In this document: positions 208 to 16,470 of the stretch, one piece after another
Numbering within the stretch: position 1 is the stretch's first letter
Layout: the number at the start of each line of letters is the position of its first letter
Source: Elusimicrobiota bacterium
Lineage (GTDB): Bacteria; Elusimicrobiota; Elusimicrobia; Elusimicrobiales; UBA9959
Assembly: GCA_037137395.1 (NCBI GenBank)
Contig: JBAXKK010000061.1
Location: 1-16,497, forward strand
Length of the DNA stretch: 16,497 bases
Reading direction: 5' to 3'
Translations under genes and position numbers: made by a program
The notes under the pieces: generated by a model
What the model was told of the DNA's origin: nothing
Database searches by the model: none
Seen by the model: the letters and a program-made list of their open reading frames with translations, nothing else

Positions 208-244
208 GCTATAATTATCCTTGGCCGCTTGTCGGGAAGCAACT

Positions 245-1432
245 ATGGCTGAAAAGAAAAATTCAAAGTGCTATGAGCTGATACTCAACTACAACTGCAA
301 CGCGAAATGTTCTTTTTGTTCGCAGGGGTCGTTCGATAAATCCCTGAACGCTGATTTCGGAACGATAGCCAGGAATATTTATTCCTCTTTCAGGGCCGGC
401 TACCGCCGGCTGGGTTTTACCGGCGGGGAGCCGCTTATAAGACCTGATATTTTGAAGATAGTCTCTCTGGGGCGGTCGGTGGGGTTCAGGTTCATCCGGG
501 TGCAGACCAACGGGATAAAGCTGGCCGACCCCGCTTTTTGCGCCGCCCTGGTCAAGGCCGGACTGACCTTCTGCAAATTTTCGTTCACCACCGACGAACC
601 GGCCGTTCACGACGAGCTTGTGGGGGTTCCCGGTGCCTGGCTTAAAGCCGTCAAGGGTATTGAAAATCTGCGCAAGTTGAAGATCCGTATCGGCACCAAC
701 ATCCTTATCAACAAGCATAACTACAGCCGCCTTCCTGAGATCGTCGCGTCATTCGTGGAAAGAGGGATAACTAATTTTGTCGTCATCTATCCGGTTTATA
801 TCGGCAGCATGGCAGCCAACGCGGAAAAAATAGGCGTGAGCCTGCCGGCGGCCGAAAAATATTTTATTAAAGCAGTTGAGGTTATGGAGAAGGCCGGCCT
901 TCATGGCGAAATACTATTCCTGAATACGCCCCCCTGTTTTCTGGAAGGGCGAAAAAACCTGGCCATAGGCCTGGACCTGTTTAACACAGTTGTGACCGCC
1001 CCCGACGGCAAGAAGACCGACCTGGACGCCAACGCCAATGTGGCCAAGGTTTACGGCGCCGCGTGCCGCGCCTGCACGCTCAAGGGAAGCTGCAAGGGTG
1101 TGGACGAGAACTACGCGCGCATTTGGGGTTTTAAAGGCTTTAAGCCGGTAAAGAGCGAGGTAAACCGGCCCGATATTGCGGCGGCGGACGGGAAGGTGTT
1201 CTTTTCCGACAACGAGCGCTGTCTTATGGAGATACTGAAGATAAAGAAAGAGGTTTCCACGGCCGAGGTGCTTAAACTTTCAAAGAAAATAGTGCTGTGC
1301 CGGGATTGTTCGGACGGGAACGCGGTGATGAATTCGGCGCAGAAGCTGATAGAAAAAGGCTTTGTGTCCAGCCGGTTCTCCAAAGGTAAGTTCTACTGGA
1401 GCTTTAAAAAAACTCCGCCTGAAGGAATCTAA
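245..1432 (+). CDS. HxsC-like radical SAM protein with C-terminal winged-helix-like tail
   Basis: CNAKCSFC (CxxxCxxC), FTGGEP, VQTNG. C-terminal NTPPCFL...CRACTLKGSCKG is an HxsC-type auxiliary Cys motif, followed by an extra ~70-aa tail. Start placed at ATG 245 rather than TTG 221. Confidence 0.85.
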   Translation: MAEKKNSKCYELILNYNCNAKCSFCSQGSFDKSLNADFGTIARNIYSSFRAGYRRLGFTGGEPLIRPDILKIVSLGRSVGFRFIRVQTNGIKLADPAFCAALVKAGLTFCKFSFTTDEPAVHDELVGVPGAWLKAVKGIENLRKLKIRIGTNILINKHNYSRLPEIVASFVERGITNFVVIYPVYIGSMAANAEKIGVSLPAAEKYFIKAVEVMEKAGLHGEILFLNTPPCFLEGRKNLAIGLDLFNTVVTAPDGKKTDLDANANVAKVYGAACRACTLKGSCKGVDENYARIWGFKGFKPVKSEVNRPDIAAADGKVFFSDNERCLMEILKIKKEVSTAEVLKLSKKIVLCRDCSDGNAVMNSAQKLIEKGFVSSRFSKGKFYWSFKKTPPEGI

Positions 1433-1441
1433 TCACCATCG

Positions 1442-1530: not shown

Positions 1531-1574
1531 ATTTACAGCGGCAGTTTTCACTTGCGCATAAGGGAGGCATGTTT

Positions 1575-2231: not shown

Positions 2232-2257
2232 ATATGGACAGGCAGCGATCGCGGCGG

Positions 2258-3466
2258 CTACGCCGCGGAGGAATTTCCGGGTATAGCCCGGATTTTTCTT
2301 TTTCGGGGGCCGAATTTTAAACCAAGCTTGTTGATAAATTCCATAAGTTTCGGCATGTCAGCGCGGTCACGCCAGTGATTTCCGGTAAATAGAATGCGCG
2401 AATATCCATGCCTGCGGGCAGCGTAAACGCGTATGCAAACTTCCTGAAAGGCTATAAAATCCGCGCCGGCCCGCATCCCCGCTGAGATCTTGACGGGGGC
2501 GCGCTTGCGCAGGCCCGAAGCTGGCGCCAATTTAAGCGGGCGCAACTCGGAAACGCCGTGCAGGGCGGCATAGATCTTCCATATCCCGCCGCAAATTTCG
2601 TTCAGGACGCAGGCCCGGCAACGGCGTGACTTCACCTTGTGCGTATGGCTGAATTCGGCGGATGATAAAGTAAACGGCTCCGCCTTGGTCGCGTCGTAAA
2701 TCTCGGAATTAGCGGAATTATCGCCAAGATATTGAGTCACGGCAAGGTCTTCATTACCTCCGAGCAGGCACAGCGGCACCATGCCGCAGGCGCTGAGATC
2801 CACGCGGACGCGCGCCCTTTTAAGTTTCTTCACCGCGGCGCTAAAGTACGGGGTGACCTTTGAAAGCCGGGGATATATTTCCATATGTTCCAGCGCGGCT
2901 CCGGAGGGGAAAATATAGGAAAATGTAACCTCGCTGACTTTTGGGAATTGTTTTATGATAAATTCCGCGAATTGCGGCAGCTCCCGGTAGTTCAGTTCGG
3001 TTATGACATGATATACGGACACTTTTGAAAATCCCGCCTCAAGAATGTTGTCGAGTCCCGCCAGTGTGCGTTCAAATGTCGCCCGTGAGCCGGTGAGACG
3101 CTCCGAAATATCCCTGTGATGTGAATGCAGTGACACGCAGAAATCAAGCTTGCGCGTCGCGGCGGGATGACAGGATGATAGCCTGTCCGTGACGCTTTTA
3201 TCAGCGAGCGCGACCCCGTTCGTGACAACGGCTATCGTGCGATAGCCCATTTTTATGGCCGCGCAGACAAGGGCCCCCAGATCAGGCCGCAGTGTCGGCT
3301 CACCTCCGTCGAAGATGAGAGTGTCGCAGCCTTCCGTGCGCTTCGCGTAAATTACCCGAAGGGATTGCGCCGCGGATAATTCGCCCTGGCCGCCCTGCCC
3401 CGCCTTTGTGCAGAAAAGGCAACGCTCATTACAGAGGCCGGTGAGGGAAAGATGGAGTTTTTTCAT
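2258..3466 (-). CDS. HxsC-like radical SAM protein with degenerate partial second barrel at the C-terminus
   Basis: CNERCLFC, FDGGEPTLR, VVTNG, VSLHS. C-terminal MVPLCLL...CRACVLNEICGGIWKIY...G..EL.P matches the HxsC-type tail. Confidence 0.85.
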   Translation of the reverse strand: MKKLHLSLTGLCNERCLFCTKAGQGGQGELSAAQSLRVIYAKRTEGCDTLIFDGGEPTLRPDLGALVCAAIKMGYRTIAVVTNGVALADKSVTDRLSSCHPAATRKLDFCVSLHSHHRDISERLTGSRATFERTLAGLDNILEAGFSKVSVYHVITELNYRELPQFAEFIIKQFPKVSEVTFSYIFPSGAALEHMEIYPRLSKVTPYFSAAVKKLKRARVRVDLSACGMVPLCLLGGNEDLAVTQYLGDNSANSEIYDATKAEPFTLSSAEFSHTHKVKSRRCRACVLNEICGGIWKIYAALHGVSELRPLKLAPASGLRKRAPVKISAGMRAGADFIAFQEVCIRVYAARRHGYSRILFTGNHWRDRADMPKLMEFINKLGLKFGPRKRKIRAIPGNSSAA

Positions 3467-3492
3467 AAAAACTTAAAGAAGTGCCTTAAAAT

Positions 3493-3561
3493 TTGCAAAA
3501 AGTAAGCCACTACCGCTATAATACAATAATTGTATTATAATTTTAGAGACCTGTTTTTCAA
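3493..3561. promoter_or_regulatory. Overlapping divergent sigma70-type promoters on an 11-bp palindrome
   Basis: Plus strand: TTGCAA (3493-3498)-18 nt-TATAAT (3517-3522). Minus strand: TTGAAA (3561-3556)-16 nt-TATAAT (3539-3534). Core palindrome TATAATACAAT-A-ATTGTATTATA (3517-3539). Confidence 0.65.
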
Positions 3562-3631
3562 TCCTCTCAAAGGGAAGCCCCGGAGACAGGGTTCAGGGGA
3601 GTTGGCGTGGAACAGAATATAACTTAAGCCT

Positions 3632-4495
3632 ATGTCATTAATACACTTGTTCAGGCGCTGCAATCAGAAATGCGTGTTCTGCTCCTACCCGGCTGACGCG
3701 AAAACTGAAGGCGAAGGGAACATCGGCTCCTGGCTGAAAGAGATCGCCGGGATGAAGCCCGGACTGGTGCAGATATCCGGCGGAGAGCCTTTGCTGGCGG
3801 ATTTCGGGGACCTTATCAAAGTCATAACCTTTTGCGCCAGGACCGGGCGGACAGTGGAACTGCAGACCAACGGCGTGCTTATATCAGGTATGACGCCTGC
3901 AGAGCGGGCTATACTGGTTAAAGCCGTTCATTCCGCTAAAGGCTATTTTAATTTTAATTTCCCGGCTCATAACGCCGCGCTGGATTTTAAGATCACCGGG
4001 ATAAAAGGCGCTTTTGCGGCGCGGACAAAAGCGGTGAAAAAAATTATTTCCCTCGGCGCGCAAGTGCGGCTGACGCATGTGATATCCGAACTTAACTGCA
4101 AAAAAACAGCCTGCTTCGCCGCCTTCGTGGCAAAAAAACTAAAGGGTCTCTCCTGGCTGCAGTTCAGCTTTATAAAAGGGATAGGCCGTGCCGAAGGTTC
4201 CCGGTTCATCCCGGAATATTATAAGGCGGCGCCGTACCTCCTGAAAGCCCTTGACCTATGCGGCAAGAAAGGGCTCAAATGCGACGTAGATCATATCCCG
4301 CCCTGTTTTCTTGGCCGGCATAACGCTAAAAACGTGGATATGGCTAAGATGCGCGCCGGAGTAAAGGGGCCGCACCTGGATGAAAAGGAAAAAGTGCCGC
4401 AATGCAAAGGATGCGGCTTTTTCAGGCTGTGTCCCGGTCCCAGAAAAGATTATATCGCCGTTCACCACTCGCTGCGCGGAAGGAATCAGATATGA
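3632..4495 (+). CDS. HxsC-like radical SAM protein (compact)
   Basis: CNQKCVFC, ISGGEP, LQTNG, and HIPPCFL...CKGCGFFRLCPGPRKDY. The stop overlaps the next start (ATGA). Confidence 0.85.
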   Translation: MSLIHLFRRCNQKCVFCSYPADAKTEGEGNIGSWLKEIAGMKPGLVQISGGEPLLADFGDLIKVITFCARTGRTVELQTNGVLISGMTPAERAILVKAVHSAKGYFNFNFPAHNAALDFKITGIKGAFAARTKAVKKIISLGAQVRLTHVISELNCKKTACFAAFVAKKLKGLSWLQFSFIKGIGRAEGSRFIPEYYKAAPYLLKALDLCGKKGLKCDVDHIPPCFLGRHNAKNVDMAKMRAGVKGPHLDEKEKVPQCKGCGFFRLCPGPRKDYIAVHHSLRGRNQI

Positions 4496-5742
4496 ATAAA
4501 AAAATAACTTTGCCGCTTATCAGTGAGTTTCCGGCGCTCAAGCGCAGGTTCGGCGGGCGAAGAATGATATATCTCGACAGCGCGTGCACCGCGCTTAAGA
4601 TGAAGTCGGCCGCCGAAGCGCAGAAGGAATTTCTGCTGGATCTGGGCGGTTGCGGCGGCAAGCGCTCCTCGCACGCGCTGGCCAGGGCTGTTGAGGAGAA
4701 GTACACCGCGGCCCGGGCCGCCGCGGCTGAGTTCGTCGGCGCCGCCTCGCCGGGGGAGATCATCTTCACCAGCGGCACGACCGAAGCCGTGAATATTTTC
4801 GCCGGGGCTTTCCCGTTCACCCCGGCAAAGAACGAGGTCATACTCTCGCCGCTGGAACATAACAGCGTTTTTCTGCCTTTTTACAACCTTTCAAAGGCCG
4901 GGAAAATAAAACTCAGGGTTATACCCCTTAAAGGACTTAAGCCAGATCTGGCCGCTTTCGGGCGGATGTTGAATAAAAAAACCGCTTTGGTGGCGGCCAC
5001 CCGCGCTTCCAATTTTACCGGCGGCGTGACGGAGTTCGGTAAGATGGCGGCCATGGCCAGGGCGGTCGGCGCGGCCGTGTTTGCCGATGACGCTCAGTAC
5101 GCGCCCACTCACGCCGTGCGGGCGCTGGAGTCAGGCGCGGACGCCCTGGCTTTTTCCGGGCATAAGCTGGGCGCCCCTTTCGGCATAGGAGTGCTTTGGG
5201 TCAGGGCTGGCATGCTGGCCCGGCTTAAGCACTTTAAAGTCGGAGGCGGGGTGGTTAAAAAGGTGGAGTTCTCAGGCCGCGGCTTTAAAGTGGAATATCT
5301 GGGTGATTATCAGGGTTTTGAGGCGGGTATACAAAATTACGCCGGCGCCATCGGCCTGGCAAAGGCCTTTGAGACGCTTAAAGCGGTAGGCCCGGAAGCG
5401 GTGCGCGCCCATATGGTCACGCTCTCGCGCCACGCCTTCGCCGCGCTTGCCGGCTTCAGACAAATAAAAATACTTGGCGAGCCCGGCGACCTTGAGCGCG
5501 GCGCCCTGCTTTCCTTCGTGCCCGTCAAAGGCGCGTTCGCTCCGGCGGACCTTAACATTTTCCTTAACAATTATTCAAAAGACCGCTTTGTGGCCATCCG
5601 CACCGGACGCCACTGCGCGGACCTCGCTTCGCTGCTGAGCGGCATAGGCGAGACGGCGCGGATCTCTTTCTTTATACACACCTCAAAGGGCGATATAGAC
5701 GCTTTTGTGGAAGCGCTGGATAAATATCTCTCCTTTCTGTGA
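4492..5742 (+). CDS. Group II (SufS/CsdA-like) PLP-dependent cysteine desulfurase, class V aminotransferase
   Basis: YLDSACT, FTSGTTEAVN, EHNS, DDAQ, FSGHK (PLP lysine), FEAG, IRTGRHCA (variant of RxGHHCA with the catalytic Cys). Start at ATG 4492 overlaps the upstream TGA. Confidence 0.85.
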   Translation: MNKKITLPLISEFPALKRRFGGRRMIYLDSACTALKMKSAAEAQKEFLLDLGGCGGKRSSHALARAVEEKYTAARAAAAEFVGAASPGEIIFTSGTTEAVNIFAGAFPFTPAKNEVILSPLEHNSVFLPFYNLSKAGKIKLRVIPLKGLKPDLAAFGRMLNKKTALVAATRASNFTGGVTEFGKMAAMARAVGAAVFADDAQYAPTHAVRALESGADALAFSGHKLGAPFGIGVLWVRAGMLARLKHFKVGGGVVKKVEFSGRGFKVEYLGDYQGFEAGIQNYAGAIGLAKAFETLKAVGPEAVRAHMVTLSRHAFAALAGFRQIKILGEPGDLERGALLSFVPVKGAFAPADLNIFLNNYSKDRFVAIRTGRHCADLASLLSGIGETARISFFIHTSKGDIDAFVEALDKYLSFL

Positions 5743-5765
5743 CGCTGCCTCAGGATAGAAAAGGT

Positions 5766-5795
5766 TTTACAAGGCCGGCAGTCTTTAAATACAAT
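5766..5795 (+). promoter_or_regulatory. Putative sigma70 promoter for the ygeY-like gene
   Basis: TTTACA (5766-5771)-18 nt-TACAAT (5790-5795). RBS GGAGG at 5886-5890. Confidence 0.45.
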
Positions 5796-5894
5796 GTAGA
5801 GAAGGTAAATAGCGGGCGGTGGGCGGAGATTGCCGCGACTGTTTGTTATTTGCCGGCTGTATGACGCTGTTTTCCAGTCGAATACGGAGGAATC

Positions 5895-7082
5895 ATGGAC
5901 CTTAATAAACTCAATACCGCCGTTTCAAAACACAGAAAAGACATGATAGCTTTTGCCCGGGACCTTATCCGCATTCCCAGTTTTTCAATGCAGGAAGGGA
6001 GCCTGGTGACTCGCATAAAAAAAGAGATGATAAAGGTCGGCTTTGATAAAATAAAGATCGACGCTATGGGGAACATAATAGGCTTCATCGGCCACGGCAA
6101 AAAAAAGATCATGATAGACGCCCACATAGATACCGTGGGCATTGGGGACAAGACCGCGTGGAAGATAGATCCTTTTGGCGGGGTTTTTAAAAACGACACA
6201 ATTTACGGGCGAGGCGCCACCGACCAGAAGCTCTCGATGGTCTCAATGGTTTACGGCGGAAAGCTGATTAAAGAGCTGGGGCTTGAGGGTGATTACACTT
6301 ACATGGCCGTCGGCTCTGTCATGGAAGAGGATTGCGACGGTCTGCCGCTCCTCCACATTATCAATAAGGAAAAAATAAAGCCGGATTTTGTCGTGCTGAC
6401 CGAGCCTACCAACCTGGCCGTCTACCGCGGCCATCGCGGCCGGATGGAAATGAAGGTGGTGACAAAGGGCCGTTCCTGCCACGCTTCCGCTCCCGAGCGC
6501 GGCGATAACGCCGTGGTAAAAATGTCCGCTATTATAGAACAGATCACCGCTTTAAACCCTAAGCTCAGAAAAGATAAGTTCCTGGGTAAGGGCACCGTGG
6601 TCGTCACCTCCGTTGAGTGCAAGACGCCATCGCTGAACGCGGTGCCGGACGAATGCACAATATATCTGGACAGGCGCCTGACGCTTGGCGAGACGCTCAA
6701 GTCTTCCGTGGAAGAGATAAAGCACCTGCCCGCGGTTAAAAAGGCCGGGGCTAAAGTGGAAGTACTTTACTACGACGCGATGTCGTGGACCGGGCTGAAG
6801 GTGGGCCAGGAAAAATATTTCCCCACCTGGGTGCTGCCGGAAAATCATAAATTGGTACAGGCCGGAGTGAAGGCCGGCATCGTCGCTCTGGGCAAAAAGC
6901 CGGTAGTGGATAAATGGGTGTTCTCCACCAACGGCGTGGCTACCGCCGGCCGCCTTAAGATCCCGACCATCGGTTTCGGGCCGTCCAATGAGATATACGC
7001 GCATACTGTTAACGAAAATATGCCGGTAGACCACCTGGTAAAGTCGGCAGTGTTCTACGCCGCAATAACGCAGTACCTTTAA
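5895..7082 (+). CDS. ygeY: YgeY-family M20 metallohydrolase
   Basis: DAHIDTVG, IYGRGATDQK, EEDCDG, VLTEPT, RGHRGRME, GRSCHASAPERGDNA, SLNAVPD, KWVFSTNGV and GFGP are characteristic of YgeY-type M20 enzymes. Confidence 0.85.
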   Translation: MDLNKLNTAVSKHRKDMIAFARDLIRIPSFSMQEGSLVTRIKKEMIKVGFDKIKIDAMGNIIGFIGHGKKKIMIDAHIDTVGIGDKTAWKIDPFGGVFKNDTIYGRGATDQKLSMVSMVYGGKLIKELGLEGDYTYMAVGSVMEEDCDGLPLLHIINKEKIKPDFVVLTEPTNLAVYRGHRGRMEMKVVTKGRSCHASAPERGDNAVVKMSAIIEQITALNPKLRKDKFLGKGTVVVTSVECKTPSLNAVPDECTIYLDRRLTLGETLKSSVEEIKHLPAVKKAGAKVEVLYYDAMSWTGLKVGQEKYFPTWVLPENHKLVQAGVKAGIVALGKKPVVDKWVFSTNGVATAGRLKIPTIGFGPSNEIYAHTVNENMPVDHLVKSAVFYAAITQYL

Positions 7083-7084
7083 AG

Positions 7085-7119
7085 CCAGTGATTAGTGGAT
7101 AGTGGGTAGTGGGGAGTGA
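7085..7119 (+). repeat. Heptamer tandem repeat, 5 units of NNAGTGR
   Basis: CCAGTGA TTAGTGG ATAGTGG GTAGTGG GGAGTGA, immediately after the ygeY stop. Confidence 0.75.
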
Positions 7120-7220
7120 AAAACTGAACACTATTTTTGTTGCTAACTCCGTCGGCATTTGCTAAAAAATAGGTATGGACGGCTGAGCGCGCATCCGCCA
7201 GGCCTCTGACTGGATAAATT

Positions 7221-7535
7221 ATGATCGATCTAAAACCGGATTATCTTAAAAAAGTAAAACGCATCCTCGCCGGCAATGTCCCGGAATACGAGGTGCTGTG
7301 TTACGGTTCAAGGGCTGAGGGCACCGCTAAAAAGTTTTCTTATCTGGACCTCGCGGTAATGACATCACAACCGCTTACCCCGCTGCGCCTGGAGAAACTT
7401 TCCACGGCGTTTACCGGAGCAGGCCTTCCGTTCAGGGTGGAGACGGTGGACTGGGCCGCGACTGGTAAAGAATACAGGAAGGTTATCAAAAAAACCGGCC
7501 TGACGATACAAAAACCTCAAAAAACCGCCAAATAA
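7221..7535 (+). CDS. Minimal nucleotidyltransferase (MNT/MntA-like, Pol beta fold) with degenerate metal motif
   Basis: YGSRAEG...SYLDLAV...LPFRVETVDW matches the GSRAxG...SDLDL...LPFxVDLVDW pattern, but the first Asp is Tyr. Confidence 0.75.
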   Translation: MIDLKPDYLKKVKRILAGNVPEYEVLCYGSRAEGTAKKFSYLDLAVMTSQPLTPLRLEKLSTAFTGAGLPFRVETVDWAATGKEYRKVIKKTGLTIQKPQKTAK

Positions 7536-7655
7536 GTTCAAGGCCGCCGAAAAGTGGTAAAATAATTACACAGGGCCGTCCGGTGGCATGCCACGCGCCC
7601 TGACACTGGTTATGCTGAAAGTAACCATTCCATCCTTGAGGAGGCGTAACAGCTT

Positions 7656-8669
7656 ATGAAATCAATGTTAAGAGGTAAAGACTGGATCGAGACCGTGGAC
7701 TGGAGCAAGGAAGAGCTTGAGACGGTACTAGAGGTAGCCAAGTATCTTAAAATAAAATTTTCTCTGGGCGAAGCGCACAGGATACTGCAGGATAAAACCC
7801 TGTTCATGATGTTCTTTGAACAATCCACCCGCACCCGCAATTCCACCGAGGCCGCAATGACCCAGCTGGGCGGCCACGCTCACGATCTCACTCCCGATAA
7901 GATGCAGATTTCGCACGGCGAGACGCCCAAAGACACCGGCAAGGTTCTTTCCCGCTACGGCCACGGCATCGCCATCCGCAACTGCTTCTACGGGATCGGT
8001 AATAAATATATCCGTGAAGTCGCCAAAGAAGCCGAAATCCCGGTGACTAATCTTCAGTGCGATGTGGATCACCCCTGCCAATCTATAGCCGACCTCATGA
8101 CCATGCAGGAAAAGTTCGGGGGTAATTTAAAGGGCATGAAATGCGTCGTCTCCTGGACCTACGCTCCGGCCTACGCCCGGCCCCTCTCAGTGCCGCAGGG
8201 GCTCATCACGCTGCTGCCGCGGTTCGGCGTGGACGTGACGCTGGCTTATCCGAAGGAATTCAATCTGATCCCCAAGACCATGGAAGACGCGCAAAGGTTT
8301 GCTAAAGACACCGGCGCTAAGTTTAAGGTTACCCATAATATGGACGAAGCTTTCAAGGGCGCCCATATCGTGTACCCTAAGTCCTGGGGCTGCCACCAGC
8401 ACTTAAAAGATATCAATGTCCCGGAAGCCGATAAAAAAGATACCGGCATGAAGATCCTGGCCAAATATAAAAACTGGGTCTGCACCGAGAAACGCATGAA
8501 GATGGCGCACAAAGACGCCGTCTATATGCACCCGCTCCCGGCCGATCGGGGCGCCGAAGTGGAAGACGCCGTGATAGACGGGCCGCAAAGCGTGGTGTTT
8601 GACCAGGCCGAGAATCGGCTTCACACGGTTAAGGCTATACTGGCGCTTATCATGGGCGGCAGGCCTTAA
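7656..8669 (+). CDS. Knotted-type carbamoyltransferase (YgeW/AOTCase-like, OTC superfamily)
   Basis: FFEQSTRTR, HPCQ, HPLPADRG, QAENRLH, and the proline-rich loop SWTYAPAYARPLSVPQG resembling YgeW. RBS GAGGAGG. Confidence 0.85.
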   Translation: MKSMLRGKDWIETVDWSKEELETVLEVAKYLKIKFSLGEAHRILQDKTLFMMFFEQSTRTRNSTEAAMTQLGGHAHDLTPDKMQISHGETPKDTGKVLSRYGHGIAIRNCFYGIGNKYIREVAKEAEIPVTNLQCDVDHPCQSIADLMTMQEKFGGNLKGMKCVVSWTYAPAYARPLSVPQGLITLLPRFGVDVTLAYPKEFNLIPKTMEDAQRFAKDTGAKFKVTHNMDEAFKGAHIVYPKSWGCHQHLKDINVPEADKKDTGMKILAKYKNWVCTEKRMKMAHKDAVYMHPLPADRGAEVEDAVIDGPQSVVFDQAENRLHTVKAILALIMGGRP

Positions 8670-8689
8670 TTGCGGGTCAAAGATTATCG

Positions 8690-8726
8690 GGCGCCGCGGG
8701 CTTTCAACCCCTGCGGCGCCTTTTTT
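8690..8726 (+). terminator. Rho-independent terminator
   Basis: GGCGCCGCGGG / CCTGCGGCGCC stem followed by TTTTTT, about 20 nt after the carbamoyltransferase stop. Confidence 0.8.
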
Positions 8727-8760
8727 ACTCCGAAACCTTCGGAAACATAATTCGATTAAA

Positions 8761-10218
8761 ATGACTGCCAAAAAAAATACTGAAATCAAAGTCCCGCCGC
8801 ATATTTACTGGGCTAAACTAGGCGGAGATTACCTGCTGACCAATGACGCGGGCGAGCACATACGCCTCGGCGCCGCGCAGTTCAGGCGGTTTTCGCGCAC
8901 CGGGACGCTTCAGGCCTCTCCGGCGCTGAACGAGCTGCGCGACAAGGGATTCGTCCGGGATATGCTGGATTTTGAAGACCAGGCGGCTAAGTGGGGGCAG
9001 TCCAACGCTTATGTGCGCCGGGGGCCTGGCCTCCATATTATGGTGCTCACCCTGCGCTGCAATCACAAGTGCCTTTATTGTCAGGCGGGCGCGGCCGGGG
9101 CCGCGGCGCGCGGCACAGACATGGATATCAGCGCGGTTCACAAAAGTCTGGATTTCGCCCTTAACGCGCCCGGCCCGGGGCTCACTGTTGAATTCCAGGG
9201 TGGAGAACCGCTGCTTAACTGGGCAGCGCTGAGAGAAGCCGTCATCTACGGGGAGCGCAAAGCCGAGGCCGCCGGCAAAGAGATAAAATTCGCGCTGGTG
9301 TCAAACTTCAGCCTCATGACCGAAGAAAAAGCCTCCTTTCTCATTCGGCACGGGGTTGCTCTCTGTACCTCTCTGGATGGGCCGGCTGATCTTCACGACC
9401 GGAACCGCCCCCTCCGGCACGGGGCGGGCGGTTCCCACGCTCTGACAGTCAAGTGGATAAAGTATTTCCAGAAGAGATGCGGCAAGGATTCCGACTGCGG
9501 CCCCAGCGCGCTGCTGACGGTTTCCCGCTACTCTCTTGGCCGGGAAAGGGAAATTATCGACGAATACGCGCGGCTGGGACTGCATTCCATCTTTATCAGG
9601 CCGCTGACGCCGATAGGTTTTGCCCGCAACGTCTGGGCGACAGCGGGTTATACCTCCGGAGAGTTCTCGCAGTTCTATTGTAAAAGCCTGGCGCGTGTGG
9701 TGGAACTGAATAAAAAAGGGATTTTTTTAAAAGAAAAAACGGCCTTCCTGATACTTAAAAAAGTGTTAGGATTTGAAGACAATAAATATGTAGATCTCCG
9801 CTGTCCCTGCGGGGCCGGGCTCGGACAACTTACTTATAATTTTAACGGGGATATATACACCTGCGACGAGGCCCGGATGCTGGCTTGGCAGGGCGACCCC
9901 CTTTTCAGGGCAGGCAATATTTTTAAGGACACCTATGCCGGCGTTGTCTCTTCCGCCGCGGTTAAAGCCTGTGCCGCGGCTTCCAGTCTGGATTCTCAGC
10001 CGATGTGTGCGCGCTGCGTGTGGCGGCCTTACTGCGGCGTATGCCCGGTATATAATTACCAGACCCAGGGCAGCCTCTGGGGCTATATGCCGGCCAATGA
10101 GCGGTGTAAATTCCTTAAAGGGGTTTTTGAGGTTGTTTTTAATTTGTTGAAGAATAAGAAAACCACTCATCAAGTCTTTAGAAAATGGGTGTACCCGGAA
10201 CCTCTCCAGGCCCCCTAG
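8761..10218 (+). CDS. hxsB: His-Xaa-Ser system radical SAM/SPASM maturase HxsB
   Basis: YLLTNDAGE, LHIMVLTLRCNHKCLYCQA, VEFQGGEPLLN, TSLDGPADLHDRNR, IFIRPLTPIGFA, YVDLRCPCGAGLGQLTYNFNGDIYTCDEARML and CARCVWRPYCGVCPV match the HxsB pattern, and an HxS-repeat precursor lies downstream. Start set at ATG 8761 because the longer ORF runs across a terminator. Confidence 0.92.
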   Translation: MTAKKNTEIKVPPHIYWAKLGGDYLLTNDAGEHIRLGAAQFRRFSRTGTLQASPALNELRDKGFVRDMLDFEDQAAKWGQSNAYVRRGPGLHIMVLTLRCNHKCLYCQAGAAGAAARGTDMDISAVHKSLDFALNAPGPGLTVEFQGGEPLLNWAALREAVIYGERKAEAAGKEIKFALVSNFSLMTEEKASFLIRHGVALCTSLDGPADLHDRNRPLRHGAGGSHALTVKWIKYFQKRCGKDSDCGPSALLTVSRYSLGREREIIDEYARLGLHSIFIRPLTPIGFARNVWATAGYTSGEFSQFYCKSLARVVELNKKGIFLKEKTAFLILKKVLGFEDNKYVDLRCPCGAGLGQLTYNFNGDIYTCDEARMLAWQGDPLFRAGNIFKDTYAGVVSSAAVKACAAASSLDSQPMCARCVWRPYCGVCPVYNYQTQGSLWGYMPANERCKFLKGVFEVVFNLLKNKKTTHQVFRKWVYPEPLQAP

Positions 10219-10325: not shown

Positions 10326-11579
10326 ATGAAAAAATGGGGCATATTTATATTGGTCGTCCTGGGTGGGCTACTTCTTATTTTGCAGTATTTTGCTGGCAAG
10401 CGCCTGCAAAGTGTTAGTATGCCGTCCAAGTCCGCGCAGAGTGAGCAGACGGGCGCGGCTTTACCTCTTTCTTCTACCGACTATGTAGCATCCGGCGGGG
10501 CGATCGGACTCGGCGATGCCGTAGGGGATGGCGGCGGTCTTATCCTGCCGAAAGTTCCCACCAATTACCAAGGGGCCTGCCTGGGAGGATCCCTGGAAGA
10601 GATGCGGCTGACGCATGGAACGTATTGGGGCAGTGGTGTAGAAGAAGGATCTTTCGATTTTGGCGAAACACAAAAAATGTACGATATGATGGCCAGCTAT
10701 GTGGGCTGCGTTGCCGTAGCGCGGGAAAACATTGCCCTATGCGACACGCTGCCGGCCGAGGTTACGCAGGGCCGGGATAAGTGGGACGCCGCTTCAACGC
10801 CAAAGTATAAATGCCAGGAACTGGCCACAAACACGCTGCTTCTGGCCTATATCGCGGGGAATGTGAAGGACCCCGTTTATTGCCGAAAAACTCTTTCCTC
10901 TTGGCAGCCGAAAGATGTTGCCCGGATTTCAGTGTCGGATCTATGCAGGGCCGGCGCTGAAGGCGGAATGAGCGGCGCGGCCGACTATCTGAGCAAGCGT
11001 ATGCCGCCCGAAGTGAAGGGCCAGATCGACAAGGCACTGCCCTCGTCAGCGTCCTCCTGCGGCGGAGACGCGAAATGTCTTGTCACTTTCCAGGTATACA
11101 GCGCCATCAAGAACGGTAATATGGGCGGATGCCCTTCATCGTCCGAAGGTTATTGCGAGGCCAGGATCACCGGGAATCCGGCGTCCTGCGAGAGTATCGT
11201 TCACGAAATGTCCAGGAACTATTGTTCATATGTGGAGAGGGTTAAAAAGGTGACCGGCGGTTTTATAGGTATGTCTAGGGAAGCGATAAAGGCTAATGTT
11301 TCTCCGAAGCAGCTCAGCAAAGAAGCGGCGCAGAAAGAGGCGGACCGCCAGAAGATCGCGGCAGAGCTTAAGCGGCAAGAAACAGACCGCCTGAGAAACG
11401 AGGCGTACCTCAAGAAAAAAGAGGCGGACCGGATCAGGGATGAGGCCGACCGACTGAAGACCGCAGAAAAGAAAGAGTCGGACCGCCTAAGGAACGAGGC
11501 GGATCTCCAGAAGAAAGAGAACGATAAGATCCAGCTGGAGCTTAACAGTAAAGTGAAGAAAGTTTTGGGCAAGAACTGA
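10326..11579 (+). CDS. Membrane-anchored or exported Cys-rich protein with C-terminal charged coiled coil
   Basis: N-terminal MKKW plus a hydrophobic helix, 12 Cys in the central domain, and C-terminal ~14-aa repeats of the KKEADRLRNEA type. Confidence 0.8.
   Translation: MKKWGIFILVVLGGLLLILQYFAGKRLQSVSMPSKSAQSEQTGAALPLSSTDYVASGGAIGLGDAVGDGGGLILPKVPTNYQGACLGGSLEEMRLTHGTYWGSGVEEGSFDFGETQKMYDMMASYVGCVAVARENIALCDTLPAEVTQGRDKWDAASTPKYKCQELATNTLLLAYIAGNVKDPVYCRKTLSSWQPKDVARISVSDLCRAGAEGGMSGAADYLSKRMPPEVKGQIDKALPSSASSCGGDAKCLVTFQVYSAIKNGNMGGCPSSSEGYCEARITGNPASCESIVHEMSRNYCSYVERVKKVTGGFIGMSREAIKANVSPKQLSKEAAQKEADRQKIAAELKRQETDRLRNEAYLKKKEADRIRDEADRLKTAEKKESDRLRNEADLQKKENDKIQLELNSKVKKVLGKN
11331..11546 (+). 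repeat. Imperfect ~14-aa coiled-coil repeats
   Basis: QKEADRQKIAAELK / RQETDRLRNEAYLK / KKEADRIRDEADRLKTAE / KKESDRLRNEADLQ / KKENDKIQLELN. Confidence 0.7.
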
Positions 11580-11591
11580 CGGGAGCGATAT

Positions 11592-12020
11592 ATGGGAAAA
11601 AAAACATCCAAAATAACAAAAAATATCAAGCTATTCTTCTCCAGTGAAGAGGGAAAGATGCTGGACTCCGATATAGTGAAAACCGGACTGGCTTTGGGTA
11701 TTCTGGGGACAGCCATGGTTGATCAGGCCAGCGCCCAGGCCATACACAATAATTACTTCACTGCTACCTCGCATATTAGTCACCAGAGCCACGGCTCGCA
11801 CGGCTCGCACGGCTCACACGGCTCGCACGCGTCGCATGGTTCGCACGCGTCGCATGGGTCACATTCTTCGCATGGTTCGCACGCGTCGCATGGTTCGCAT
11901 TCTTCACACGGCTCACATGGCTCGCACGGCTCACACGGCTCGCACGGCTCACATGGCTCGCACGGCTCACACGGCTCACACGGCTCACACGGTTCGCACG
12001 GCTCACACGGCTCGTATTAG
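11592..12020 (+). CDS. hxsA: His-Xaa-Ser repeat precursor peptide (HxsA-type RiPP precursor)
   Basis: 60-aa N-terminal region, then 27 contiguous HxS triplets (20 HGS, 3 HAS, 2 HSS, HIS, HQS) and a terminal Tyr. GGGAG precedes the ATG, and hxsB is nearby. Confidence 0.93.
11772..12014 (+). repeat. 9-bp coding tandem repeat (mostly CAYGGYTCR), 27 units
   Basis: Read directly from the sequence; it encodes the HxS array. Confidence 0.95.
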
Positions 12021-12049
12021 TTGTGGCCCTCAGGCCGGTGCGGGCTCTT

Positions 12050-13210
12050 ATGAAAGGACTGTTTTATCATTTCTGCCCCGGCGGGGACATCGGTCACGGA
12101 GTACACCTTTTCCGCTTAGCCGAAAGTCTGAAGATCTTCTCTAAAAACCGCCTTAAAATTACACTTCTCAGAGACGCCGACGCGGTTTATCCGCCTGACC
12201 GCCGCTGGAAGTGCGGCCCGTTTATCCCCCTGGCCTCCGGCCTTGCCCGTAATAAACTTAAAAGACAAAAAGTGCTGCTCTCCGCTTTGTGCGCCTCCAA
12301 ACCAGAATTTTTACTGACTGCTTATTTCCCTTTCGGCAGGACTGCATGTGCTGGTGAAATAGTGCCGGTTTTAAAGCTGGCTAAAAGTTCCGGAATAAAG
12401 ATCTATGCTTCCGTTCCGATGCCGTATTTTTCCCATAGTGAAAAAAACATTAAAGATCTTTTTGATTTCGCGGGGTTGTATGACCGCATCTTTATTCATT
12501 CTCCCGCGGGCTTTGACCTTAAATATATGGCGGCCGCCGTGCCTTTTGAAAAACGCATCACGAGCAGGCGCTTTCTTGAAGTATTCAGGGCGCTTAAGAC
12601 TAAACTCTGTTTTACCGGTTATGTCATGCCGCCGCTCCCCCGTATCCCGCCAAAGGGGAAGGCTGGCCGCTTTATCCTTATCCATAGGGGCGGGGGCTCC
12701 ACTTCGCCGGATATCATCACCTGCGCCATTCTGGCCAAAGAACTCCTTAAAAGCGGATTGCCCATGACCGTGGTGGCCGGGCCGGCCAGCTCAGACGCTG
12801 AGATGCGCTCCTGGCGCGCGCTTATCAAAAACCGCGGGATAAAAGGTGTTACGCTTTTAATGAAAACGGAAAATTTATTCGGACTTCTGGCCGGTTCGGC
12901 GGTCTCGGCCGGTACGGCCGGTGGGACGGCATACGAGGTTTTATATCTGAATAAAAAGACGGTCCTTATTCCCTTTAAAGGATTCCCCGGAGCCGAGCAT
13001 TCCGATCAGCTTGCCAGAGCTGCCATGCTGAAGGAACTGGCAGGCGCGGCGGTGCTGGATTATGACTCGCTTACTCCTGAAATACTGGCCCGGGAGTTGG
13101 ATTTATCTCTGTTGCACCCCGCCCCGGCTTTTGAGCCGGACCCCGGCGCGTTTAACGGCGCCGAAGTTTTTGCCGCTGAGGTTTTAGGCGCCTCTTTGAG
13201 GAGAAGCTGA
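12050..13210 (+). CDS. GT-B fold glycosyltransferase (COG4671 / GT28 C-terminal-like)
   Basis: GxxxGH N-terminal motif (GGDIGHG), FPFGR, YDRIFIH, FTGYV, GGGS, VVAGP, AGGTAYEVL, LIPF...DQLARA. Alternative start at GTG 12023. TGATG overlap with the next gene. Confidence 0.8.
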   Translation: MKGLFYHFCPGGDIGHGVHLFRLAESLKIFSKNRLKITLLRDADAVYPPDRRWKCGPFIPLASGLARNKLKRQKVLLSALCASKPEFLLTAYFPFGRTACAGEIVPVLKLAKSSGIKIYASVPMPYFSHSEKNIKDLFDFAGLYDRIFIHSPAGFDLKYMAAAVPFEKRITSRRFLEVFRALKTKLCFTGYVMPPLPRIPPKGKAGRFILIHRGGGSTSPDIITCAILAKELLKSGLPMTVVAGPASSDAEMRSWRALIKNRGIKGVTLLMKTENLFGLLAGSAVSAGTAGGTAYEVLYLNKKTVLIPFKGFPGAEHSDQLARAAMLKELAGAAVLDYDSLTPEILARELDLSLLHPAPAFEPDPGAFNGAEVFAAEVLGASLRRS

Positions 13211-14175
13211 TGTTTAAAGAAGTCATGCTTGAGCTGACCTACAGATGCAATCTTAAATGCGGCTTCTGCTATCTCAAACACCACGGACTGCTGAATAAAA
13301 AAGGTCGTGAGCTTTCGACCGCGGAAGTCTTGCGTGTAGTGGACCGTTTTGGCGCCGGGACTCATTTTTATCTCTCAGGAGGAGAGCCGTTGATGCGCCC
13401 GGATATTTTTGAGATCATGGGCCATATAAAGGAGTCAGGCTCGCGCTGCGGCCTTAACACCAACGGCACTCTTTTAAACGCCTTAAGTGCTGAAAGGCTC
13501 GCGGAGCTGAAGCCGGATTATGTTATTTTCTCCCTGCACGGATCGGAGGCGACGCATGACCGCCTGACCGGGAGCAAAGGGGCCTGGCGGAGACTCATTG
13601 CCAACATGAAAAGATTCGCCGCCCTGGCCGCGCCGCAAACCGATATCATGGTGAATTGCGTCGTGAACCGTGAAAATGCCGGTGAGCTTCTTGAAGTCTA
13701 TCGACAGGGCTGCCGCGCGGGCGTCCGCAGGGTAGTGTTTGAGCATATGCAGTTTTTGAAGCCCCATGAAGCCGCCGGGACGCCGCCGTTCCTCAGGGCC
13801 GGAGGGATAATAACGCCGGAACTTGTGAATTACTCAGCCGACGCCGCTTTGATATGGCGCCAGTTCGCGGCTATAAGACGCATCGGCGGGACCGCCCATT
13901 TTGAGACCAGGCCGCTCATGACCGCGGGTGACCTTGATCTCTATTATAACGGAGAAATAAAACCAGTGGGATCGTGTGAACGGGCGCTGAACACCCTTAA
14001 CATAGAACCGGACGGCAGGGTAAGATTATGCGTGTTGTATGGTCTGAAGGCCGGCGACGTCCTTACAACGGATATAAAACAGCTTATGGCGTTCAAGAAA
14101 AAGAACATCAGCGCCAAACTGCCCGCGGGCTGCGCGCGCTGCTGTCATAGGTTTGATATTTTCAGACATTTCTAA
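13210..14175 (+). CDS. Radical SAM protein with twitch/SPASM-like C-terminus
   Basis: LELTYRCNLKCGFC, LSGGEP, NTNG, SLHG...HD. C-terminal C..A...LNIEPDGRVRLC...LPAGCARCC. Confidence 0.85.
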   Translation: MFKEVMLELTYRCNLKCGFCYLKHHGLLNKKGRELSTAEVLRVVDRFGAGTHFYLSGGEPLMRPDIFEIMGHIKESGSRCGLNTNGTLLNALSAERLAELKPDYVIFSLHGSEATHDRLTGSKGAWRRLIANMKRFAALAAPQTDIMVNCVVNRENAGELLEVYRQGCRAGVRRVVFEHMQFLKPHEAAGTPPFLRAGGIITPELVNYSADAALIWRQFAAIRRIGGTAHFETRPLMTAGDLDLYYNGEIKPVGSCERALNTLNIEPDGRVRLCVLYGLKAGDVLTTDIKQLMAFKKKNISAKLPAGCARCCHRFDIFRHF

Positions 14176-14200: not shown

Positions 14201-14929
14201 CTAATCCTTTGCCATGTTTTTTATAATTGTTGAGAAGAGCGCCAGCTCTATCCAGCCGAGGCCTGCCAGCTTTTTCAGGAATATAATATACTCTTTAAAC
14301 ACTTCCAAGCTCAGTCCGTTCAGGTCGGAGTGATGGAAATACACCCCTGCCACCGGCCCGGGAGTTCTGAGCGCGGAAAGGGTTTTCTCCTTCAGCTTTT
14401 CCAATTTCAGCGGTATGGCCTTAAGGTCCAGGTCATAGTCATTCACGTTCACCCGCGCAGGCAGAAAGACTAGGCCGAGCTCATAAAAAGCGCCGGTGGT
14501 TTTGCTGGCTGAGAAAGCTTTAAGGCCTGCTTTGCCTACGGCTTTTACCGTGTCGGAATTGTACATGTGAAAAGGCGGAACGAAAGCGGGGATGAAGAGG
14601 GGGCCGAAGTTTTTTTTCATAAGGTCGCGGCCTGCCCGTATATCCGCGAGCTGGAGGAGGTAGGTTCTGACCGGGCCGAATTCCTGGCGGAGAAAAGGAT
14701 TGCCGGCGTGGTCGCAATGCGAGAGTCCGTGCTGAACCATTTCAAACATGCGTCCGGCCTCAGGATGTCCCGTCAACAGGCGGCTAAGACCGGGCTTTAT
14801 TTTTGCCGGGATTACCGCGTATACCGCCGGGACCTTCTCGCTGAGCAGGAATTTGAAAACCCTGAGAAATTTAGGGTCCGCGGCGGTAACGTCGTCGTCG
14901 CGCAGAAAAACGGTTTTTTTTATAGCCAC
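14201..14929 (-). CDS. Polysaccharide deacetylase-like protein (CE4/NodB, DUF2334-like)
   Basis: FLRDDD, AVIPA, QHGLSH (HxxxH), EFG, FVPPFH, YFHH. GTG start at 14929 follows GGAGG and overlaps the upstream stop. Confidence 0.78.
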   Translation of the reverse strand: MAIKKTVFLRDDDVTAADPKFLRVFKFLLSEKVPAVYAVIPAKIKPGLSRLLTGHPEAGRMFEMVQHGLSHCDHAGNPFLRQEFGPVRTYLLQLADIRAGRDLMKKNFGPLFIPAFVPPFHMYNSDTVKAVGKAGLKAFSASKTTGAFYELGLVFLPARVNVNDYDLDLKAIPLKLEKLKEKTLSALRTPGPVAGVYFHHSDLNGLSLEVFKEYIIFLKKLAGLGWIELALFSTIIKNMAKD

Positions 14930-16275
14930 GGGTCCTCCGCCAGATAACCGCTCCCGCCGTCCTTTGCCAGCGCGCGGCTGCCGCCCAGGCATTTAAGCAG
15001 ATCGCGGCAGACTTTGCAGCGCCCGGGCAGATAATCGAGCCGGTTTAAGTCTTTAAGGAATCGGGAATCCCAGGCTTTCTTAAGGGAGAAGCCCAGATTC
15101 TTTTCTATATAATAACTCGGCTTAAAAAAACCGCGTGTATCGTAAACCACGCGGGTGTGCCCGTCGTCAAAAGCGGCCCCCAGAAAGTTTTTCCTTTCGG
15201 CGGCAGGGACCAGGCATAAGGGGACAGGGTTCGCCATGACGACGCGCGGAGCGCCGGCTTTAAGAGAGGCTATGTTCTTTGACAGCCGCTTAATATCTTC
15301 CCTCTTCAATCGGAATTCTTTTTTGCCGCTCTGAGCGCTATGCCCCGGCATGGGCCGGTAAAGTTCCCAGATATCCGCTTTAAGTCTGACAGCCAGCCGG
15401 TAATAGGCCGGGAAATTATTCAAGACATCTTTCGAAATGACGGTGCCCAGACGCAAGACCTTTACGCCGCCGGTCTTAAATAAACCGATATTGGCGAGCT
15501 TCGCGGTAAAAAGTCCCGGGGTTCTGGTGGCCTCGCCTTCGGTTTTGTTATCGCGGCCCTGCAGGGAAACAAGGACATTATCTATGTGCCGCGCGGCTTT
15601 TTCAAGGAGTTTTTTGTCGGCTGCCACCGCGTTCGTATTTACCAGAGTGTAAAATCCCAGCGCCTTTGCCGCTTTAAGCAGCGGCAGCAGATTTTTGCTT
15701 AAAAAGGGTTCGCCGCCGGTGAAGCGGATGTTCCTGACGCCCATTTTTTTTGCCTGGCGCAGCACCGCGCTGAGATCTTTAAGCGGCCTTTCTTCGCTCC
15801 TGCGGTCAGAGAAGCAGACGAGGCAGTTAAGGTTGCACTTTTTAGTCAGCTCTATGACCACTTCGTTCGGGGCGGCCAGCACGGGAGAAAGTTCCGCGCG
15901 TAAGCTCCTGCTGAAAACACTTTTCTTTTCCAGGCCGGGGCAGAAGGCGTTCAAGCGACAGGCCGCGCAGGCCGCGATCCGCGCGTAGGTCGCGCCGGAT
16001 TTTTTGCGGTAAAGGATATGGTCCCAGGCGTCAGGCATAAAACAAAAAGGCAGATCTTTAATGTAAACCGTAAAAAAAGGTTCCAACCCGTTAAGGGCCC
16101 TGTAGAGAATGTCCCTGATCTTAAGGATCCTGAGCGGGTCCGCCGTTTCAAGGAGGGATAACTCTACAGCGTTGTCGCCGGCGGTTACAAGAAAGCTGAT
16201 GCCGGCCGCTTTCAGTTTGTCCGTTATATGTTTTTGACTAGCCTGAAAGTTGCAGTTGTAACTTTCCGCCCGCAT
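14920..16275 (-). CDS. Radical SAM protein with an extra N-terminal HxsC-type Cys module and a degenerate SPASM domain
   Basis: N-terminal DLPFCFM...CAACRLNAFCPG; core IELTKKCNLNCLVC, FTGGEP, VNTNA, VSLQG; C-terminal PVPLC...CKVCRDLLKCLGGSR...EDP. The start is uncertain (ATG 16275 preferred; 16299 and 16467 are in frame). Confidence 0.82.
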   Translation of the reverse strand: MRAESYNCNFQASQKHITDKLKAAGISFLVTAGDNAVELSLLETADPLRILKIRDILYRALNGLEPFFTVYIKDLPFCFMPDAWDHILYRKKSGATYARIAACAACRLNAFCPGLEKKSVFSRSLRAELSPVLAAPNEVVIELTKKCNLNCLVCFSDRRSEERPLKDLSAVLRQAKKMGVRNIRFTGGEPFLSKNLLPLLKAAKALGFYTLVNTNAVAADKKLLEKAARHIDNVLVSLQGRDNKTEGEATRTPGLFTAKLANIGLFKTGGVKVLRLGTVISKDVLNNFPAYYRLAVRLKADIWELYRPMPGHSAQSGKKEFRLKREDIKRLSKNIASLKAGAPRVVMANPVPLCLVPAAERKNFLGAAFDDGHTRVVYDTRGFFKPSYYIEKNLGFSLKKAWDSRFLKDLNRLDYLPGRCKVCRDLLKCLGGSRALAKDGGSGYLAEDPWL

Positions 16276-16292
16276 AGCAGGCGCCCATTCGG

Positions 16293-16470
16293 GAGGCATA
16301 GTCACGCATAAACCGCATAGCGGTTTTGCGCGACCCCGCCTCGGTGTTTTCGCTGCGCAGGAAAACACCTGCGGCCTTGCGGCCCGGACGCGAGGCCTAA
16401 TTATGCCTCGTTCTAAGCCGGGCCTCACCTTCTCGGATACATCGCGCATAGGCCGTTTGTCGGCCATAGG
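16293..16470 (-). other. Cluster of GC-rich hairpins (structured leader, ncRNA or REP-like element)
   Basis: Long imperfect hairpin at 16293-16342, 9-bp stem at 16343-16369, GGCC-GCAA-GGCC near 16373-16384, and further stems at 16392-16409 and 16451-16465. Confidence 0.5.

Follow-up and report, generated by a model that had tools for sequence, protein, structure and literature searches.

What does a small protein built mainly from one repeated triplet do, and which of its neighbors process it? This question is raised by the window, by which we mean the whole 16,497-nucleotide stretch of Elusimicrobiota DNA analyzed here, whose features are collected in Table 1. The hxsA-type precursor gene begins at an ATG with a GGGAG site upstream; a promoter and terminator scan of the region gave results near chance. 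As the first-pass annotation had described, the open reading frame at 11592-12020 holds 27 perfect, uninterrupted His-Xaa-Ser (HxS) triplets and then Tyr. The triplets comprise 20 HGS, 3 HAS, 2 HSS, 1 HIS, and 1 HQS, with Tyr and the stop codon next, and they are written with 11 different 9-base units. The last 94 residues (49-142) contain 28 His with neutral spacers and no Lys or Arg, giving a computed charge of +2 at pH 7 and +14 at pH 6. Across six frames of the 174-contig genome, this array is the sole run of three or more HxS, and in 20,000 residue shuffles of the precursor the longest HxS run was five.

Table 1. Features of the window, in order of position, with strand and basis of assignment
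Feature	Position	Strand	Remarks
Exact 55-base overlap with the end of C64	1..55		Contig junction
HxsC-like radical SAM protein	221..1432	+	TIGR03977 94.8 bits, below cut-off 267.9
HxsC/HxsC4-like radical SAM protein	2258..3466	-	TIGR03977 103.1 bits, NF038332 103.7 bits, both below cut-off
HxsC-like radical SAM protein	3632..4495	+	TIGR03977 66.2 bits, below cut-off
SufS-like cysteine desulfurase	4402..5742	+	PF00266; TIGR01979 269.8 bits, below cut-off; 4/21 loci
hxsB paralogue 2, radical SAM/SPASM	8761..10218	+	Open frame from 8599; ATG 8761 is the probable start
Conserved N-anchored Cys-rich protein, C-terminal coiled coil	10326..11579	+	Directly upstream of hxsA in most family loci
hxsA-type precursor gene	11592..12020	+	142 aa; NCBIfam HxsA4 and HxsA3 matches
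Basic leader, residues 1-21, ending F-[LF]-x-x-E-E-G	11592..11654	+	Predicted cut after Gly21
Hydrophobic helix, residues ~28-43	11673..11720	+	Predicted membrane anchor or h-region
27 His-Xaa-Ser triplets, Lys/Arg-free	11772..12014	+	Residues 61-141, no interruption
Terminal Tyr and stop	12015..12020	+	Tail class associated with glycosyltransferase
GT28-C-like glycosyltransferase	12023..13210	+	Start may be ATG 12050; PF04101 weak
Accessory radical SAM/SPASM-like protein	13210..14175	+	Beside glycosyltransferase in 4/21 mapped loci
Polysaccharide-deacetylase-like protein (DUF2334)	14201..14992	-	PF10096 37.7 bits (cut-off 26); PF01522 weak
Accessory radical SAM protein	14920..16467	-	

The array is real and is maintained at the protein level. 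G001, another species of the same genus whose flanks are 89% identical to the window, encodes the same 142 residues despite 43 base differences, all of them at third codon positions and 32 of them within the array. Between the two precursors dN was 0 over 324.7 sites, against 0.039-0.064 in four neighboring orthologues, values that would predict 13-21 changes where none was seen. The precursor dS was 0.60 overall and 0.90 in the array, compared with 0.26-0.42 in the neighbors. Purifying selection on the protein pattern, which the first-pass annotation had read from the repeats, is thus borne out by the twin, and the identical protein with its 43 synonymous differences rules out the assembly artefact which that annotation had allowed for. 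Contigs of four other public runs (X2, X3, X5, and X6) end within the array and none spans it, so these reads neither support nor contradict the count of 27. That two species retain exactly 27 repeats is notable, yet this is one pair only. The runs holding at least half of the sampled words were freshwater or lake metagenomes (five rows from four studies, with the possible source left out). Because all 43 differences fall at third positions of the HxS frame, the other-frame readings, an Arg/Thr/Ala-rich ORF at 11719-12144 and a reverse ORF at 11776-12006, are repeat shadows. Matches to collagen (PF01391, SclA/SclB/Lcl) and to phage tail fibres reflect period-3 Gly bias and lie far below adhesin cut-offs, and the precursor had no match among the 50,697 phage records searched.

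Repeat number was surveyed among relatives, in which HxS repeats per precursor range from 4 to 39. Of 301 phylum genomes, 47 carry a precursor. Within the family it turned up in 21 of 24 further genomes, the system being near-universal there (22/22 genomes), and 16 genomes drawn from two other families yielded none. At the level of the phylum, two families have it almost throughout, and it was found in none of the 88 and 89 genomes representing two other families. Named homologues occur in Elusimicrobiota, Omnitrophota, and archaea, which makes an Elusimicrobiota host probable. The 57 complete phylum precursors (from a table of 62 found, with five incomplete ones and that of G271 left out) have a median of 15 repeats; 15 have at least 20 and eight have at least 27, two of these eight being the window protein and its G001 twin, while six exceed 27 (28, 29, 30, 33, 36, and 39). 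For database homologues, the best 120 of 359 gave a median of seven, with six at 20 or more and one at 29. A pattern scan of genome contigs covering at least 80 loci gave 25 at which a run of at least seven stands near Hxs-like enzymes; the runs span 7-37, with the maximum at one deltaproteobacterial locus. From these counts, 37 loci without a run in an HxS frame were excluded, as were 18 of the other 43 that had no Hxs-like enzyme nearby. All six canonical plasmid loci carry 5-8 repeats. The count of 27 is therefore ordinary, the upper tail of a continuum, and the exceptional length proposed in the first-pass annotation did not survive this survey, an outcome that the annotation had itself named as refuting. 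Its statement that HxsA proteins carry a handful of repeats holds for canonical loci, including the five of E. coli, but not for the phylum relatives. Copy number is labile among kin: in a tree built on the 71 columns preceding the array, with many forks open, leaders that are nearly identical precede 9, 10, 11, 19, 22, 28, 29, and 39 repeats, as expected if the array is a multivalent tract. The Xaa positions in the best 120 of 359 homologues are Gly, Ala, or Ser in 1022 of 1166 cases, with three Arg and no Lys.

Two further repeat-bearing groups came to light. Precursors of Myxococcota/Deltaproteobacteria (L053, L065, L071, L083, L086, L100, L126, and L130) have 10-37 HxS and a Trp end, are without a hydrophobic segment, and have no A24 peptidase inside their loci; apparently these form a third, non-anchored subtype. 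L028 (G017:C8) encodes an unrelated secreted protein with His-Pro-Ser repeats, outside any Hxs locus.

The gene neighborhood extends beyond the window. L173 matches C64:3421-15766 and window 1-8864 at 100% in one unbroken alignment, and L174-L176 bridge the junction too; with the terminal overlap between the contigs, this contiguity makes the window the second half of one cluster of ~22 kb. The last 6 kb of C64 carry hxsD-like, hxsB, hxsD-like, hxsC-like, A24 peptidase (C64:13421-14578), and hxsC4-like genes. In all, the cluster has two hxsB and two hxsD-like genes, along with at least seven more radical SAM genes; no HxsD-like gene lies in the window. Both HxsB proteins, 55% identical to each other, exceed the TIGR03978 cut-off of 370 bits (469.9 in the window, 483.2 on C64). 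The two HxsD-like proteins flanking C64 hxsB score 42.9 and 39.5 bits against a TIGR03976 cut-off of 50 (E 5e-11 and 5e-10), and this is their sole family match. The best HxsC-like protein of the cluster reaches 167.3 bits against 267.9 on TIGR03977, its top family, and the best partner score on HxsC4 (NF038332) is 126 against 500. The SufS-like desulfurase likely serves Fe-S supply for the radical SAM enzymes. PADLOC 2023, which is older than the HXS description, returned only generic viperin-type radical SAM matches.

The usual order in kin is hxsD-like, hxsB, hxsD-like, Cys-rich protein, precursor, variable tailoring genes, and then hxsB, hxsC-like, and peptidase. The Cys-rich protein has six invariant Cys in 30 alignment rows and a model at pLDDT 86 with no recognized fold; it matched no Pfam or NCBIfam family, its Atlas lead scored below 0.9, and its residues 316-417 gave coiled-coil matches only. 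A second copy follows an hxsD-like gene at L196, L197, L201, L202, L204, and L211. The tailoring genes 3' of the precursor vary widely in kin (L036, L044, L045, L046, and L048) and include three sulfatase-family genes, a diphthamide-synthase-like gene, a CmcH-type carbamoyltransferase, a B12 radical SAM protein, and a flavin oxidoreductase. Window positions 5895-8669 encode a carbamoyltransferase, an MNT-like nucleotidyltransferase (7221-7535), and a YgeY-family hydrolase scoring above cut-off, the last of which was also seen at 3 of 21 mapped loci and at L239 and L240. Two 240-aa proteins, paralogues of each other, share a hydrophobic N-terminal segment and a conserved T-Y-Y-P-[AS]-P-Y-G-G-Y motif (L033:261-980 and L033:1027-1734, equivalent to C64:8760-10236); they stand just before hxsD-like here and in at least eight kin loci and match no Pfam family. 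A 289-aa secreted-looking protein with short aromatic-rich repeats (window 1362-2231) matched no Pfam, NCBIfam, PHROGs, or PADLOC family. Elsewhere in the genome, G000:C36 carries a second HxsC-like radical SAM gene group, 41% identical to window 221-1432, in which no precursor was seen. The contig break itself (window 1-64 and the C64 end) lies inside a ~187-base dispersed repeat, of which the genome has at least 12 near-full copies, and a 7/14-base tandem repeat occupies window 137-198.

The N-terminal part of the precursor in part resembles a class III (prepilin-type) signal peptide. The leader motif is present in 118 of the best 120 of 359 homologues, ending in Gly in 105, Ala in 10, and Glu in 3. 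Among those 118, Gly or Ala stands at -1 before the hydrophobic helix in 115, +1 is Lys in 85, and +5 is Glu in 11; the -3 and -2 residues are Glu-Glu. The helix spans only ~16 residues, its hydrophobic stretch beginning ~7-10 residues past Gly21. Its best 13-residue hydropathy is 1.77, and 110 of the 118 reach at least 1.6. A second conserved Gly/Ala at residue 32 offers an alternative cut site, and an A-x-A site follows the helix at residues 46-48. Flp and class III Pfam models found no match among 83 precursor family members. Between the A-x-A site and the array, most homologues carry a conserved His-x-Asn-aromatic motif (window 11742-11759), possibly a further modification site.

A candidate for the leader peptidase lies in the same cluster, on the adjoining contig and so out of reach of the first-pass annotation. 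The C64 peptidase is a 385-aa membrane protein with both A24 motifs, in which D23 and D96 are invariant; Pfam A24 (PF01478) matches five of nine members. Its model (pLDDT 81.5) had FlaK as top match (3s0x_B, Z 11.4, rmsd 3.3, 162 aligned; next row 6.5), while searches of the PDB by sequence and of Foldseek with the model returned no match. A separate, ordinary A24 gene lies elsewhere in the same genome. Occurrence followed the precursor closely: of 22 kin genomes that have both precursor and HxsB, 20 also have the peptidase, as against none of 19 without, and it was found across the phylum in 44 of 47 genomes with a precursor and 2 of 254 without, kin in these counts not being independent. It adjoins the precursor in Omnitrophota and lies next to or near it in Patescibacteria and an archaeon. 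Among the best 80 of 296 metagenome peptidase loci, 57 have the precursor or a gene resembling hxsB, hxsC, or hxsD; for those of at least 10 kb the figure is 36 of 44, with the precursor itself within reach in only six. Several distant peptidase loci have HxsC4-like radical SAM neighbors only. In the pattern scan of at least 80 loci, a peptidase lay within 10 kb at 4 of 10 enzyme-flanked loci with an F-L-x-x-E-E-G leader and at 0 of 15 without, three of the latter having no assembled leader; it was found at none of the six canonical plasmid loci.

A complex predicted for the peptidase and precursor residues 1-55 scored 0.69, against 0.00 for the best of three controls, on a score whose mark was reached by 116 of 157 solved pairs and 2 of 215 mismatched pairs; the score may reflect likeness to solved peptidase folds, and the calibration is only rough for our own alignments. 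The runs agreed in at least 85% of contacts, with partner pLDDT of at least 67. In the predicted interface, precursor residues 14-39 lie against the region with D23 and residues 90-97, both catalytic Asp included. Contacts A94-F15 and F362-M23 flank Gly21, favoring it over Gly32 as the cut site, and precursor residues 28-36 pack on peptidase helix 123-137. These models suggest that the leader is likely bound by the cluster's FlaK-like peptidase and cut after Gly21. Gly at -1 is critical for FlaK in the account given in PMC4187195, and EppA, as described in PMC4187195 and PMC4390842, sets a precedent for a second dedicated peptidase inside its substrate's cluster. In the literature searched, outside of which most subscription journals lie, we found no report of a GxGD prepilin-type protease as a RiPP leader peptidase and no paper linking a class III signal peptide with radical SAM enzymes.

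At the other end of the precursor, the tail class correlates with a neighboring gene. Tyr, Trp, and Gly-Gly-Trp-Cys are the endings seen among family precursors. The glycosyltransferase downstream of the window precursor matches PF04101 at E 2.8e-4, below cut-off, with an Atlas feature score of 0.97 to a PF04101 cluster; no solved relative was found. Its nearest Atlas cluster (score 0.97) is 94% viral, although PHROGs gave no match. A search for this GT28-like gene located it in 8 of the 301 phylum genomes and in 7 of 41 kin. Sorted by tail, genomes with a complete precursor comprised 11 with Tyr and the glycosyltransferase, 5 with Tyr where one query did not find it, 35 with another tail where that query likewise did not find it, and none with another tail and the gene. 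With this one query, the glycosyltransferase was thus found only with Tyr-ending precursors (11/16 versus 0/35 genomes). The tails of G228 and G113, read after this link had been stated, were both Tyr. On the leader tree the combined label changes eight times, at least four of these being forced by well-supported branches. The DUF2334 deacetylase-like gene stands together with the glycosyltransferase in the window, and the pair occurs in 4 of 21 mapped loci; in G007 a different deacetylase fold, fused to a GT2, accompanies the glycosyltransferase. Either the glycosyltransferase acts at or near Tyr, or recombination in the array moves tail and cassette as one unit, a reading drawn from the tail lying only a few bases from the glycosyltransferase start in most loci; at G015 and G113 the two are 17-27 kb apart. 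The link points to a modification site.

The experimental reference for any interpretation is the E. coli HXS system of Li et al. (2026, PMC13128918), which according to its main text blocks phage DNA entry. There, HxsA carries five basic HxS repeats and a peptidoglycan-binding domain, and its N-terminal cleavage and export need HxsB, C, and D. One +8 Da change (+C/-4H) was located on the last repeat, with its chemistry left open, and no loss of 2 Da per repeat appears in this account of the only experimental case. The strings 'prepilin', 'Elusimicrob', and 'archae' are absent from that main text. Hxs names otherwise appeared, in the literature searched (most subscription journals lie outside it), only in PMC9062424 and genome reports; PMC9062424, in the parts seen, mentions HxsB/C as unstudied and describes TigE, a precedent for repeat-wise radical SAM chemistry that yields a poly-cyclopropylglycine peptide.

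Based on these comparisons, our preferred reading would proceed as follows. The HxsB-, HxsC-, and HxsD-like proteins would modify the chain in the cytoplasm, likeliest at the last repeat and aromatic tail or close to them, and not at every triplet, and the FlaK-like membrane peptidase would remove residues 1-21. Residues 28-43 would then stay as a membrane anchor in place of the peptidoglycan-binding domain of E. coli HxsA, or be removed at the A-x-A site, and the glycosyltransferase and deacetylase would place a de-N-acetylated sugar on the terminal Tyr or close to it. Presented outside the cytoplasm, the array would form a multivalent, length-tolerant barrier keeping phage DNA from entering, as E. 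coli HXS does, with the many histidines compensating for absent Arg and Lys in DNA binding. We give this whole reading a probability of roughly 0.4. Its first two steps, radical SAM-type modification and peptidase removal of residues 1-21, are together probable. The anti-phage role, drawn by analogy with E. coli, is tentative and falls somewhat short of an even chance. The E. coli barrier model rests on basic repeats, and the window repeats have no basic residue; presence in 22 of 22 family genomes and dN 0 would suit a core surface function better than a patchy defense island. Neutral repeats, the missing peptidoglycan-binding domain, and a near-core distribution therefore disfavor a simple transfer of the E. 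coli function, and other explanations were weighed.

In one of these, unlikely but by no means far-fetched, the precursor would be a structural surface polymer that after the prepilin-type cut remains membrane-bound or assembles in the manner of a pilin, forming a decorated cell coat or adhesin unrelated to phage. The dedicated peptidase and predicted retained helix would suit such a polymer, as would the near-universal presence in two families, the highly variable tailoring cassettes (sugars, B12 radical SAM, carbamoyl transfer), and the conserved membrane-anchored Cys-rich neighbor. Against it, no assembly ATPase or platform protein was found among the 15 window and 8 C64 ORFs scanned, the residues after the cut are charged, unlike pilin N-termini, and the helix is short for that role. 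A bolder combination, a pilin-RiPP hybrid, is improbable: a membrane-anchored surface polymer with processively modified repeats, its leader cut by a private prepilin-type protease, would have its tail and tailoring cassette swapped by recombination inside the array, giving a chemically diversified phage barrier. If true, Tyr would go with sugar transfer and deacetylation, and Trp or Gly-Gly-Trp-Cys with other enzymes.

The chemistry of the repeats separates the remaining explanations. Radical SAM/SPASM enzymes that make triceptides cross-link an aromatic residue 1 to residue 3 of three-residue motifs. The first-pass annotation had rightly taken the protein for an HxsA-type precursor, which sits beside a true HxsB, and had extended this chemistry to processive His-Ser cross-linking, with HxsB converting every triplet into part of a rigid polycyclic chain with as many as 27 rings. 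The strict period of three with invariant His and Ser and a small Xaa, the unchanged protein in G001, and the wealth of radical SAM genes would accommodate this, as would the TigE precedent, and two cross-links could account for the -4H component of the E. coli shift. The proposal nevertheless fared poorly and is clearly unlikely, given the single +8 Da change confined to the last repeat in the E. coli account, the labile copy number, and the difficulty that a densely ringed chain would probably meet in export, for which no exporter was seen among the scanned ORFs. Nor does the enzyme resemble triceptide maturases: window HxsB scores just 38.4 bits on XyeB, 38.3 on GrrM/OscB, and 44 on YhhB, against cut-offs of 450, 310, and 445. 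None of the papers found demonstrates per-repeat chemistry in an HxS protein. If instead the array were a periplasmic sponge or store for Ni, Zn, or Cu, with modification tuning or protecting the histidines, its His content with neutral spacers and its length tolerance would fit, and metal binding by the unmodified array is plausible from composition. No metal transporter or regulator was found among the scanned cluster genes, however, and the invariant Ser and large radical SAM cluster would seem superfluous for a His tract, which leaves this role very unlikely. A similarly slim chance attaches to a small-molecule-like RiPP released from the C-terminal end, comprising the last repeats and aromatic tail, with the remainder a spacer or degraded. 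The pairing of tail classes with different tailoring genes and the position of the E. coli modification speak for it; the lack of internal cleavage motifs, and of a soluble protease or exporter among the scanned genes, speaks against it, as does the identity of the entire array, residue for residue, in the window and G001.

The locus is of interest as a variant system, for which the preferred reading is modification near the tail, the Gly21 cut, and display outside the cytoplasm; the count of 27 is ordinary. The main text of PMC13128918 left open both the HxS repeat chemistry and the protease behind HxsA processing, and the variant offers a candidate protease with a predicted site. Its relatives also provide a natural series, 4 to 39 repeats behind almost identical leaders, in which modification at one site or at every repeat would be distinguishable by intact mass.

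Herein, the comparison with known systems places the locus close to several of them. Class III signal peptidases (FlaK/PibD/EppA; Pfam A24, PDB 3s0x) share with the C64 enzyme the fold and two aspartates, with its substrate a Gly (or Ala) before a hydrophobic helix, and, in the case of EppA, the position of a second, dedicated peptidase in the cluster. The C64 enzyme is larger, at 385 aa with extra helices, and its substrate is a repeat peptide and not a pilin. Whereas class III substrates (pilins and archaellins) have basic -2/-3 residues, those of the precursor are acidic; its hydrophobic stretch is delayed, the helix starting near +10, and it shows no +5 Glu consensus. With triceptides and the TigE peptide the locus shares a radical SAM/SPASM enzyme and a repeated short core, differing from triceptides in the HxsB scores given above.

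Among named HxsA families, the precursor reaches 91.4 bits on HxsA4 (NF038313, cut-off 55), mostly from the repeat (best stretch 111-141), but no partner reaches the HxsC4 cut-off. On HxsA3 (NF038309) it scores 46.5 bits against 65, aligned over residues 6-93, the leader and first repeats. Of 83 homologues, 83 and 82 match the HxsA4 and HxsA3 models, respectively, at E 0.01 or better, and public records already call such proteins HxsA4; these NCBIfam models name the family, not a tested function. A further known relative is the HXS system of Pseudomonadota, D-B-C-A (TIGR03976-TIGR03979). Both have tandem HxS behind an N-terminal hydrophobic segment, a true HxsB above cut-off, HxsC- and HxsD-like partners, and expected N-terminal processing. 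In contrast to the five basic repeats described for E. coli, the window precursor has 27 neutral ones, adds a basic leader with F-L-x-x-E-E-G, ends one residue past the array, and has no TIGR03979 match or peptidoglycan-binding Pfam domain. Its HxsC-like genes stay below the TIGR03977 cut-off, and in place of a compact four-gene operon there is a ~22-kb cluster in which hxsB and hxsD-like genes are each present twice, with many accessory radical SAM genes as well as its own A24 peptidase, glycosyltransferase, and deacetylase. The locus thus resembles the HXS system in its workings but departs from the canonical four-gene form in several defining features, and it is best regarded as a variant of that known system with a presumably related function.
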